Of a stretch of 15,250 bases of DNA, positions 6,661 through 8,598 are shown in pieces. Position 1 is the stretch's first letter. Each line of letters begins with the position of its first letter. Under the pieces are notes generated by a model that was not told where the DNA came from, did not search any database, and worked only from the letters and a program-made list of their open reading frames with translations. A program made the position numbers and the translations under genes. Source of the stretch: a virus; the IMG/VR virus record IMGVR_UViG_3300045988_165193, positions 1 through 15,250 of that record; one strand, given 5' to 3'.

Positions 6661-8598
6661 ATGAATAAATTTAATTTTAATAAATTAACACCATTTAAGT
6701 GGTTTATACTAGAGAATTTTCCATTTATTGAGGCAGACTTTGACGCTTTAACCGAGTGGCAATTATTTTGTAAACTAGGTAAAGAAATGAATAAAATAAT
6801 AAATAGCGAAAATACTTTAGGAACACAAATGGAAAATGTAACAAACGCTTTTATTGATTTACAAAATTATATAAATAATTATTTTGATAATTTAGATGTA
6901 CAAGAAGAAATAAATACAAAATTAAATGAAATGGTAGAGGACGGAACATTAGCAGAAATTATAAATCAAGAAATATTTTCAGAAATAAATCAAAAAATAT
7001 TAAATAATGAAACTAATATAAATGAAATAAAAAATTTTAATGATGCAAATGTACAAGTAATTCCAATTTATACTGGCTCTAATACAGCAAGTGGAACAGT
7101 AGTTAAATTACAAAATAAGTTAATATTAGTAGATTTTGGATTAGAGGCTAATAGTACTAATATTATCAATTTTTTAGTAACAAACGAATATACAAAATTT
7201 GATTATGCTATTATTACTCATTTTGATACAGACCATATAGGAAATGTAGACGGATTAAAAAATATTGTTAATAGTAATTTGTTAGATTTTAGCGACTGTA
7301 CTTTTATATATCATAAAAAATTAGATGATGAATTAACACAAGATTATTATAAAACTTTCTATAATGAAGTTGATAATTTTATTAGATATACAAAAGGATA
7401 TACAGTTATAAATCCAAATATTGAGGGACAAGAAATCGTAATTGATGATTTTGCAAAATTAAATTTTTATAATTGTACAGATAATTTTTACGAAGATTAT
7501 TACATAACAGATGTTTATAATAATTTTTCTTTAATTACTTTAATTACTTTAAATGATTATAAAATATTATTAACTGGAGATAGTGAGAAAATAAGCGAAG
7601 AAAATTACGCACCCGAATTACCTTATAATATAAATGTAATTTCAGTACCTCATCATGGCGTTAATCAAACTACTTCAGATGAACTTATGAAAAGAGTAGC
7701 ACAAAATGGAATTTATTATATTATAAATTCAGTTTTAACACCACTTAACCGACCATATATACAACAAGCTTTAAATACTGGAGCTAGATTATATACAACT
7801 AACGAAAGTCATCAAATTAAAATTGAAGTAAAAAATAATATATTATCTTCATATTGTACGGGGCAAGCTATTACAAAATTTAATTATAATAGTGAAATTA
7901 AAGAAAATACAGATTTAAACACATTAACATTTTTAGACAATTATACTTGTACAGATATAAATATTATAAACACTTTACTAAATATGCCATTAAATTATAA
8001 TAATACAGAATATAAAAATCAATTCTATATTAAAAATATGAGAATTGGAACAAATGCTTTATATCAATTCTTTTTTGCAGTAAATAGTTTAGTTGAGCCA
8101 TATATGAGAAAAACAACAGACAGAACAACTTGGACACCTTGGTGTCAAATTAAAACAGTACCAAATTTTGTAGGTACTTATAGAAACAATGCAGTTATGG
8201 AACTTACAGCAAGTACTTGGGCAACAATTTTAAGTGTAAATAAATCAATGTCAAAATGGAGTGCACCTATTGAATTAGGAACAGACGGAATAATTAAAAT
8301 AAATAACATTACAAATACACAAGCCCGATTACATTTGAGTGGTCAAGTTTCTTTTACAAATACAAATGTTGATGATAGAATTAACATAGCAGTATTTAAA
8401 AATGGAGTGGAAGACACAAGATTTGAAGCATATATAAATAAGGCAACTACAAATGCAAGTAATACTTTTAATACTTATACATTTGATTTTTATGTTAGTC
8501 TTACAAATAATGACCAAATAGAAGTAAAAGTTAGAAATGTTACAAATACTTGTTCTGTTCGTTCTGGAGAAACAAGAGTAAATGTTGAAATAATATAA
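6661..8598 (+). CDS. Tail appendage / receptor-binding protein with an embedded metallo-beta-lactamase-fold domain
   Basis: 645 aa in the position of phi29 gp12. The N-terminal ~125 aa (FPFIEADFDALTEWQL...NYFDNLDVQEEINTKLNEMVEDGTLAEII) resemble N-terminal anchor regions of Firmicute phage fibre proteins. The central part is an MBL domain and the C-terminal ~245 aa look beta-rich. Confidence 0.7.
   Translation: MNKFNFNKLTPFKWFILENFPFIEADFDALTEWQLFCKLGKEMNKIINSENTLGTQMENVTNAFIDLQNYINNYFDNLDVQEEINTKLNEMVEDGTLAEIINQEIFSEINQKILNNETNINEIKNFNDANVQVIPIYTGSNTASGTVVKLQNKLILVDFGLEANSTNIINFLVTNEYTKFDYAIITHFDTDHIGNVDGLKNIVNSNLLDFSDCTFIYHKKLDDELTQDYYKTFYNEVDNFIRYTKGYTVINPNIEGQEIVIDDFAKLNFYNCTDNFYEDYYITDVYNNFSLITLITLNDYKILLTGDSEKISEENYAPELPYNINVISVPHHGVNQTTSDELMKRVAQNGIYYIINSVLTPLNRPYIQQALNTGARLYTTNESHQIKIEVKNNILSSYCTGQAITKFNYNSEIKENTDLNTLTFLDNYTCTDINIINTLLNMPLNYNNTEYKNQFYIKNMRIGTNALYQFFFAVNSLVEPYMRKTTDRTTWTPWCQIKTVPNFVGTYRNNAVMELTASTWATILSVNKSMSKWSAPIELGTDGIIKINNITNTQARLHLSGQVSFTNTNVDDRINIAVFKNGVEDTRFEAYINKATTNASNTFNTYTFDFYVSLTNNDQIEVKVRNVTNTCSVRSGETRVNVEII
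7048..7845 (+). other. ComEC/Rec2-like metallo-beta-lactamase domain inside the appendage protein
   Basis: Ordered motifs are LILVDFG, ITHFDTDHIGNVDGL (HxDxDH at 7219..7236), ILLTGDSEKISEE and VISVPHHGVNQTTSDEL. These match the ComEC-type MBL motif series (xxIDxG / HxDxDHxGG / LLTGD / HHGS). Confidence 0.65.

Follow-up and report, generated by a model that had tools for sequence, protein, structure and literature searches.

The IMG/VR virus record IMGVR_UViG_3300045988_165193 was analyzed over a stretch of 15,250 bp (the window), with the focus on the tail appendage gene at 6661–8598 and on the metallo-beta-lactamase (MBL) domain that it encodes. Perfect inverted terminal repeats of 119 nt are present at positions 1–119 and 15132–15250. 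Since these repeats occur together with a phi29-type gene set, the window is the complete linear genome of a small phi29-like podovirus. Its GC content is ~28%, and its replication is presumably protein-primed. Within the late structural operon, the appendage gene is the next one after that of the lower collar (Table 1), as is typical of phi29. A preliminary description of this DNA had assigned the gene to the position of phi29 gp12, and this was borne out: the gene follows the homologues of gp10 and gp11, and the corresponding slot of the ~90%-identical contig L003 is occupied by an appendage of the beta-helix/pectate-lyase type. The divergent genome L009 (15.3 kb) has an MBL variant there. 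PHROG 7043, named ‘tail protein’, matched the MBL region of the appendage (E 2e-12). It is almost certain that the open reading frame 6661–8598 encodes a tail appendage with an MBL domain.

The protein is composed of a putative N-terminal anchor, a stalk, the MBL domain and a beta-rich C-terminal module. AlphaFold2 (AF2) predicted the N-terminal 128 amino acids (aa) as long helices (32–77, 80–93 and 96–128). The conservation of aa 1–105 and their co-variation with the collar region point to a role as virion anchor.

Table 1. Features of the appendage gene and its surroundings in the window (positions in nt).
Feature	Position	Strand	Remarks
Major capsid protein	3505-4911		upstream of appendage gene; Pfam Phi29_MCP
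Connector/upper collar (gp10) gene	4973..5884	+	Pfam Phage_connector, E 2e-39
Lower collar (gp11-like) gene	5868..6644	+	immediately 5' of appendage gene; PHROG 5472 ‘lower collar’, E 1e-23
Tail appendage gene (phi29 gp12 position), 645 aa	6661..8598	+	after major capsid protein, connector and lower-collar genes; PHROG 7043
Putative N-terminal virion anchor module, aa 1-105	6661..6975	+	70-100% identity in proteins with unrelated remainder
Helical stalk/linker, aa 106-128	6976..7044	+	end of helix 96-128; AF2 secondary structure
MBL-fold domain, ComEC-CTD/Pce clade, aa 129-400	7045..7860	+	Pfam, AF2, Foldseek, profiles
MBL motif I, LILVDFG (D158), aa 154-160	7120..7140	+	D158 invariant, 48/48
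MBL motif II, THFDTDHIG (H187, D189, D191, H192), aa 186-194	7216..7242	+	HxDxDH variant
MBL motif III, YNNFS (N287 replaces usual His)	7516..7530	+	N287 invariant
MBL motif IV, LLTGD (D307, bridging ligand), aa 303-307	7567..7581	+	invariant; aligns to ComEC D700
MBL motif V, PHHG (H331, H332), aa 330-333	7648..7659	+	both invariant; align to ComEC H725/H726
C-terminal beta-rich module, predicted C1q/TNF-like jelly roll, putative receptor-binding tip, aa 401-645	7861..8595	+	
Bidirectional intrinsic terminator, appendage/tail-knob junction	8597..8620	.	10-bp stem, T runs on both strands
Tail knob (gp9-like) gene	8640..10274	-	convergent with appendage gene; Pfam phi29_gp9_C and Caud_tail_N
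Packaging ATPase gp16	10278-11306	-	
Protein-primed family-B DNA polymerase	11559-13670	-	one 703-aa open reading frame

The MBL domain and its metal ligands

Pfam Lactamase_B (PF00753) matched aa 146–339 with an E-value of 7e-7 (29.8 bits; gathering score 22.7). The AF2 model displayed the alpha-beta/beta-alpha sandwich fold of the MBL superfamily, with predicted local distance difference test (pLDDT) values >90 across aa 130–400. In a Foldseek search of the PDB, the top matches were all of the MBL fold. The best was the MBL domain of Moorella ComEC (9ic4; E 1.5e-13, template modelling (TM) score of 0.76, identity of only 20%), followed by the catalytic module of pneumococcal Pce/CbpE (1wra; E 3e-12, TM 0.65), while all remaining MBL proteins had E-values of at least 1.6e-7. 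A single-sequence search already matched Pce (E 8.6e-7). With a profile built from 48 homologues, Pce/CbpE structures scored 4e-19 to 1e-17 and ComEC domains 2e-16 to 3.5e-15, as compared to 3e-7 for the next-best MBL. In the Foldseek and profile searches, the Pce and ComEC matches exceeded those of other MBLs by 6–12 orders of magnitude. The assignment of aa 129–400 to an MBL domain of the clade formed by Pce and the ComEC C-terminal domain (CTD) was confirmed, well past chance.

The NCBIfam model ComEC_Rec2 also matched (E 1e-10), with 40 bits as compared to a cutoff of 190 and only at model positions 455–624, i.e., its CTD part. Since Lactamase_B was the sole Pfam match and the ComEC_Rec2 match was confined to the CTD, the appendage protein is not a ComEC. 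It is not a Pce either; the catalytic domain alone is in common. Other members of the superfamily were considered and rejected. The anti-Pycsar protein Apyc1 showed only background MBL similarity in the profile search (E 2e-3 to 7e-3; Pce, 4e-19). Beta-lactamases, lactonases and RNase J/CPSF fell behind Pce and ComEC by 10 or more orders of magnitude, and no beta-CASP domain was found.

All five metal-binding motifs of the superfamily (D; HxHxDH; H; D/C; H) were found, with ComEC-type substitutions in motifs II and III. Among the 48 MBL-bearing homologues, most of which are just 23–35% identical to the appendage protein in the MBL domain, D158, H187, D191, H192, N287, D307 and H331/H332 were invariant, as were F269 and N271. 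Position 189 was Asp in 20 homologues and His in the other 28, and so would provide a metal ligand in every case. In the HMMER alignment, motif II reads HPDADH in ComEC 9ic4 and HTHSDH in Pce, and motif III reads NNNS and NSNS, respectively; N287 aligns to the N-x-S of both, the identity of the motif III ligand of Pce being taken from this alignment alone. The counterpart of the bridging ligand D307 is D700 of ComEC (alignment here; PMC12455585). It is known that the ComEC CTD departs from the standard MBL ligands by an Asp in place of the second His of motif II and an Asn at motif III (PMC8579336). The appendage protein carries this signature with HFDTDH and N287. The ComEC CTD binds Mn2+ and cleaves bis(p-nitrophenyl) phosphate (bis-pNPP) and DNA, acting as an Mn2+-dependent endo/exonuclease (PMC8579336, PMC12455585). 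As judged from these alignments, the homologue family straddles the ComEC-type and Pce-type ligand sets, with every ligand strongly constrained. Because seven ligand positions are invariant across 48 homologues at 23–35% identity, they argue for selection on catalysis. The HxDxDH/Asn ligand set suggests Mn2+ or Fe2+ as the metal rather than Zn2+.

The likeness to the ComEC CTD extends to HxDxDH, the motif III Asn, the bridging Asp and the His pair, and the ComEC CTD acts outside the cytoplasm. Unlike ComEC, the appendage protein is devoid of the competence channel (PF03772), the oligonucleotide-binding (OB) fold and membrane segments, its MBL domain is strongly acidic, and the equivalent of S728 is not conserved. 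Pce (2bib, 1wra) is the best sequence and profile match and shares an F/Y-N before motif III and the N-x-S of motif III. It also combines an acidic catalytic module with a targeting module, which in Pce is wall-targeting, and it acts on a wall polymer. In contrast to the HxHxDH of Pce, HFDTDH is present here, no choline-binding repeats were detected (no CW_binding_1 match), and Pce is a monomeric bacterial surface protein rather than part of a virion. The MBL domain of the appendage is acidic, with a net charge of −15 and an isoelectric point of 4.65; the net charge ranged from −7 to −25 in all 48 homologues.

The preliminary description had placed a ComEC-like MBL domain at 7048–7845 (aa 130–395), which coincides with the modelled domain (first strand 130–135, last strand 394–399). 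The motifs that it listed, LILVDFG, THFDTDHIG, LLTGD and PHHG, were all found where claimed within open reading frame 6661–8598, and its numbering of H187, D189, D191 and H192 was correct. It had called this motif series complete; the four listed motifs stand, but motif III (N287 in YNNFS) had been overlooked. The label ‘ComEC-type’ holds at the motif level, i.e., for HFDTDH and the Asn of motif III (PMC8579336). The expectation that profile and fold searches would place the region in the MBL superfamily was confirmed, and more narrowly so for the ComEC-CTD/Pce clade. The metal ligands were indeed conserved in homologues, and the flanks are as described, with a helical and conserved N-terminus and a beta-rich stretch of ~245 aa at the C-terminus.

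Putative anchor, exchangeable cassette and relatives

The contig L003 (15,178 bp) has the same gene order as the window. The product of its appendage slot (P0078; 688 aa) matches Beta_helix and a pectate-lyase-like family. In a BLASTN comparison, the window and L003 shared ~90% identity over 2751–6963 and 8590–14925, with no similarity between these segments. Homology breaks at nt 6963, i.e., at about codon 101 of the appendage gene, and the exchange ends at the stop codon. The anchor lies upstream of the breakpoint, and the stalk is the first segment downstream of it. Since L003 is ~90% identical on both sides and unrelated in between, where it encodes a beta-helix/pectate-lyase protein, all that lies beyond codon ~101 was shown to be an exchangeable cassette. 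The kilobase 7001–8000, inside this cassette, has the lowest GC content of the genome (22.4%, as compared to 25–33% elsewhere). This is consistent with a separate evolutionary origin of the cassette.

Among the best 120 database hits of the protein, aa 1 to ~113 were retained at 70–100% identity, and the rest was either an MBL or unrelated. The MBL module was present in about half of these hits, mostly at ~30% identity to the one described here. An exhaustive HMMER search with aa 1–105 alone against 1.84 billion cluster representatives (50%-identity clusters) retrieved 6151 clusters at E ≤ 1e-3, of which 387 had E ≤ 1e-30. A Pfam scan of the top 149 anchor cluster representatives revealed the linked modules. 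Pectate-lyase/beta-helix modules (26/149) and GDSL/SGNH esterases (24/149) were followed by MBL (6/149), glycerophosphodiesterase of the GDPD family and NAGPA phosphodiester glycosidase (3/149 each), GH43 and the endosialidase N-terminal extension (2/149 each), and GH113 and EEP (1/149 each); the remainder had no Pfam hit. GDPD is the classic teichoic-acid phosphodiesterase fold. The anchor-linked modules are enzymes of surface glycopolymers, and four of the folds (MBL, GDPD, NAGPA and EEP) act on phosphodiesters. A fixed anchor combined with a swappable enzymatic body is the signature of a receptor-binding/depolymerase protein. Separately, a protein of 6424 aa (P0236) was found to contain ~50 repeats resembling anchor residues 71–98 (LDVQEEINxKLxEMxEDGTL motif). 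Because of these ~50 copies, the anchor motif may recur widely as a repeat in giant proteins of the fibrous type.

The C-terminal module showed no sequence family match, and its jelly-roll model reached pLDDT values of only 61–94. Foldseek related the model to 4-1BBL, BxpB and the C-terminal fibre tip of Bdellovibrio Bd2734 (TM 0.57–0.59 on target) and to many phage proteins labelled ‘C1q domain’ or ‘tail fiber’. In the closest relatives (P0005–P0007), anchor and MBL are 95–100% identical to those of the window, as compared to 74–76% for the C-terminal module. Such variability is the pattern expected of a receptor-contacting tip, and the modelled C1q/TNF-like beta-sandwich probably binds the receptor. 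In three proteins of ~382 aa (P0018, P0019 and P0021), nothing follows the MBL module, which can therefore itself be the distal element.

With TBLASTN, aa 21–379 of the appendage protein matched a 597-aa protein of Clostridium perfringens phages at 24–25% identity (E 2e-16). This protein is encoded by the phi29-like Guelinviridae CPD7 (CPD7_19), susfortuna, phiQ and vB_CP_qdyz_P5, where it is annotated as ‘late competence protein ComEC’ or ‘hypothetical’. It shares anchor, stalk and MBL with the appendage of the window. It differs by the location of its gene on the polymerase-side arm rather than after the collar, by an HYHSDH motif II and by other C-terminal modules. Homologues of the CPD7/susfortuna protein were present in 74 GenBank phage records, of which 64 belong to Clostridium phages. 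The carriers include siphovirus-type C. perfringens phages such as PhiS63. Named examples are gp16 of PhiS63 (‘BppU family baseplate upper protein’), a protein of phiCp-B (‘MBL-fold metallo-hydrolase’) and gp21 of phiCP26F (‘hydrolase-like/tail protein’); other labels are ‘predicted hydrolase’, ‘tail protein’, ‘minor structural protein’ and ‘endopeptidase-endolysin’. In GenBank OR780021.1 (L002 3-1544) and relatives, MBL-bearing siphophage tail proteins are labelled ‘endopeptidase-endolysin’ or ‘minor head protein’, and these labels are probably wrong. The proteins of DCp1 and LPCPA6 have the first ~150 residues in common with the CPD7/susfortuna protein and continue with a ‘pre-neck appendage’ body, and so follow the same cassette logic.

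The preliminary description had presented an MBL domain as new for phi29-like appendages. This was overstated, since homologous MBL proteins of C. perfringens phages, including phi29-like Guelinviridae, had already been deposited. The open-access literature searched (papers on C. perfringens podoviruses, a 2024 review of phi29-like phages, and two reviews of envelope enzymes and adsorption) yielded no paper that discusses MBL domains in tails or appendages of phages, and MBL-fold enzymes go unmentioned in the latter two reviews.

When the MBL domain alone was used in a word-indexed search, one fragment was retrieved, owing to the limit of the index; a 13-sequence alignment of the domain retrieved 202 relatives. 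The closest cellular relatives (P0259–P0372) are stand-alone ComEC-CTD-like MBLs of ~280–310 aa from gut Firmicutes and Viridibacillus. NCBI names them ‘MBL fold metallo-hydrolase’ or ‘ComEC/Rec2 family competence protein’, and the channel is absent. Signal- or lipobox-like N-termini together with HFDKDH were observed in 104 of 120 cellular relatives, and because of these N-termini they are regarded as extracytoplasmic. By this comparison, the phage MBL module would stem from a lineage of surface-exposed enzymes. The surroundings of the genes of three cellular homologues (L072–L074), inspected for wall-polymer and competence genes, were inconsistent: one gene has a pectate-lyase-like gene in its vicinity, one belongs to a VTC/DUF4956/Cthe_2159 operon close to NAGPA, and one adjoins an ABC transporter.

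Genome surroundings and host

The bidirectional terminator at the end of the appendage gene is a strong one; 2 sites were found, as compared to 0.2 expected. An Rfam scan of the window detected neither the packaging RNA (pRNA) nor any other RNA family. In a megablast search of the whole window against GenBank phages, zero relatives were found at the nucleotide level, relatives being present at the protein level only. In metagenome assemblies, near-identical proteins and ~15-kb contigs are common.

Some further genes differ between the window and related contigs. The polymerase of L003 (11742–13662) is called as two genes of 444 and 203 aa, as compared to the single open reading frame of the window; the split is probably a frameshift or an assembly error. 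A phage tail lysozyme gene (Pfam PF18013) is split in the window by a +1 frameshift near nt 2398 (…GGT TAT C GGG TTA…), with the N-terminal part in open reading frame 2216–2440 and the C-terminal part in the next frame to 2852 (2592–2852). The same split occurs in L004 and one at a different site in L003, while the gene is intact in L006, L025 and L064. It could be a pseudogene, a case of recoding or a recurrent assembly error. The endolysin (1444–2211) consists of a glucosaminidase domain and two CW_7 repeats. Since the ~90%-identical L003 has LysM repeats instead, the wall-binding module of the endolysin is swapped, as the appendage is.

A 138-aa open reading frame at 453–869 matches the C-terminal DNA-binding domain of Spo0A (PF08769, E 3e-11) and is also present in L003. 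It suggests a possible interference of the phage with the control of sporulation, and a spore-forming Firmicute as its host. The ~15-kb genomes of this group (loci L004–L070) were binned into metagenome-assembled genomes (MAGs) of widely differing taxa, among them Mycoplasmatota, Clostridia, Bacilli, Gastranaerophilales, Bacteroidales and an ‘archaeon’. This scattered binning is phage contamination of the MAGs and makes host inference from binning unreliable. The Spo0A_C-like gene and the GC content of ~28%, and nothing more, hint at a low-GC, spore-forming Firmicute as host.

Proposed function of the appendage MBL

Overall, the best explanation is a modular appendage with an active MBL phosphodiesterase directed at a polymer of the host wall or surface (probability of roughly 0.55). 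The conserved ligands make it quite likely that the MBL domain is catalytically active; that its substrate is a wall or capsule phosphodiester stands at about even odds. In this model, the ~105-aa N-terminal anchor would fix the appendage to the collar, and the helical stalk would link it to the MBL domain. The latter, as a binuclear metallo-phosphodiesterase (aa 129–400), would hydrolyze a phosphodiester of some glycopolymer on the surface of the host, the candidate targets being the teichoic-acid backbone, a phospho-substituent such as phosphocholine or glycerol-phosphate, and a phosphorylated capsule. The C1q/TNF-like tip would bind the receptor. The virion would bind, process and pass the polymer layer in this way, just as phi29 gp12 uses its beta-helix on wall teichoic acid. 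Further support comes from the relatives that end after the MBL module and from the extracytoplasmic nature of the closest cellular relatives.

Precedents exist for the individual elements. The phi29 appendage binds and digests wall teichoic acid (PMC9863714). The appendage described here has in common with gp12 the slot after the lower-collar gene and the combination of an N-terminal virion anchor with an enzymatic body. Unlike gp12, it has an MBL fold and no right-handed beta-helix (no Pfam Beta_helix or Pect-lyase match) and a predicted C1q/TNF-like tip with no autocleaving chaperone detected, and no sequence similarity to gp12 was found. The protein would work like an enzymatic appendage of the gp12 type, yet it is no structural homologue of gp12. 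Pce removes phosphocholine from teichoic and lipoteichoic acid (PMC4929436), and the ComEC CTD degrades the non-transforming DNA strand (PMC8579336, PMC12455585). These two nearest characterised relatives are both extracytoplasmic phosphodiesterases. The baseplate of Lactobacillus phage Ld17 contains a GDPD, as cited in PMC6116005. The function proposed here, that of a virion phosphodiesterase for a polymer of the teichoic-acid type, is the same, and GDPD occurs on the same anchor in relatives of the window; the Ld17 enzyme differs in being a TIM-barrel with activity shown, as compared to an MBL with predicted activity here.

Pce and ComEC were not separable by sequence or structure, as their profile E-values differed by less than three orders of magnitude. 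Four reasons, none of which is decisive, nevertheless favour a phosphodiester of the wall or capsule over DNA. First, a wall polymer is favoured because the anchor is shared with polysaccharide lyases and hydrolases, sugar esterases and three other phosphodiester-directed folds. Second, near-isogenic phages differ in the cassette and MBLs on near-identical anchors are ~30% identical, which favours a strain-variable polymer. Third, DNA is disfavoured because the ComEC MBL domain alone showed no measurable DNA binding and needs the OB fold (PMC12455585), with no nucleic-acid-binding module being present here, and because the equivalent of the putative DNA-contact residue S728 of ComEC is V334, which is aliphatic in every homologue and never Ser. 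Fourth, as a weak point, the MBL domain is strongly acidic.

Several points weigh against a wall-directed phosphodiesterase, and some of them speak for the foremost alternative, which is nonetheless unlikely: a virion-borne Mn2+-dependent DNase that clears extracellular DNA of the biofilm or mucus matrix to reach the cells. The closest structural match by Foldseek (9ic4, TM 0.76) is the MBL domain of ComEC, a proven Mn2+-dependent DNase, and the HxDxDH of motif II and the Asn of motif III reproduce its exact ligand set (PMC8579336, PMC12455585); the ComEC_Rec2 match points the same way. EEP modules (DNase I-like superfamily) occur in the same slot and could be DNases, and the closest cellular relatives are extracytoplasmic. 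Teichoic acids are polyanionic too, so an acidic surface discriminates poorly between them and DNA, and the ComEC DNase also cleaves the generic substrate bis-pNPP (PMC8579336). The neighbourhoods of the three cellular homologues showed no consistent link to wall-polymer genes. In addition, the AF2 model is an alignment-based monomer with the trimeric state assumed, and the location in the virion is read from the conserved anchor co-varying with the collar region. The missing OB fold, the acidity of the domain in all 48 homologues and the absence of Ser at the S728 position count against a DNase. Moreover, profile similarity to Pce is equal or better, 28 of the 48 homologues have the Pce-type HxHxDH, and no precedent for a tail-attached DNase was found in the literature searched. 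A universal substrate would also leave unexplained the rapid divergence of the module and its swapping with polysaccharide-specific cassettes.

Less probable again is that the MBL is active on another envelope bond or a small molecule, e.g., a phosphomonoester, the pyrophosphate linkage unit, a sulfate ester, a lactone or a lipid head group, with the receptor being modified rather than depolymerised. The MBL superfamily spans many chemistries (PMC7785958), and Pce itself trims only terminal phosphocholine and does not depolymerise (PMC4929436); GDSL esterases, which remove substituents, rank high among the cassettes that this anchor carries. Against this, both nearest characterised relatives are phosphodiesterases, and other functional classes of MBL matched far worse, by the at least 10 orders of magnitude given above.

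It is improbable that the MBL fold has been kept as a non-catalytic binding or structural module, with host recognition by binding only. Some MBL domains are inactive scaffolds, such as the CTD of S. pneumoniae ComEC with its substituted ligands (PMC8579336), and binding could be done by the separate C1q-like tip. Against this, all metal ligands are invariant among otherwise divergent homologues, and the sole variable ligand position alternates between Asp and His, which both bind metal. An intracellular enzyme outside the virion, i.e., an Apyc1-like anti-defence cyclic-nucleotide phosphodiesterase or a DNA/RNA-processing nuclease, is hardly credible: precomputed Pfam PF23023 (Anti-Pycsar_Apyc1) is listed for many homologues and Apyc1 structures (7u2r/7u2s) turn up in the profile search, but the former matches are flagged weak or faint and the latter are at background level, and the gene occupies the gp12 slot of the structural operon, its product combines an anchor that also carries beta-helix modules of tailspikes with a predicted C1q-like fibre tip, and the family belongs to a PHROG named for a tail protein.

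Enzymatic receptor-binding proteins set the host range of phages and are a source of anti-biofilm and anti-capsule enzymes. The recognised repertoire of phages of Gram-positive bacteria comprises beta-helix lyases and hydrolases, SGNH esterases, GDPD phosphodiesterases and peptidoglycan hydrolases. To these, an intact MBL of the ComEC/Pce clade, a predicted phosphodiesterase, is added as a candidate enzyme class in the form of a recurrent, exchangeable appendage cassette. This cassette occurs in cultured C. perfringens phages as well as in gut phages of ~15 kb, which form a very large family (6151 anchor clusters). It brings a new catalytic variant to a modular design that is well known; the variant was already deposited but unremarked, and is abundant in gut picoviruses. 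The finding corrects the misleading annotations ‘late competence protein’ and ‘endopeptidase-endolysin’, and it draws attention to MBL hydrolases of gut Firmicutes that form a large, unstudied family of surface lipoproteins. A tractable test system is offered by C. perfringens with its phages susfortuna or CPD7. If the module were a tail-mounted DNase derived from the ComEC-CTD lineage, a nuclease would be a structural part of the phage adsorption apparatus, of which no description was found in the literature searched. With chances that are evenly balanced, the MBL is an unrecognised class of receptor-destroying enzyme that cleaves phosphodiesters of teichoic acids or phosphoglycans; if so, this class would occur widely among gut picoviruses and the phages of C. 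perfringens.

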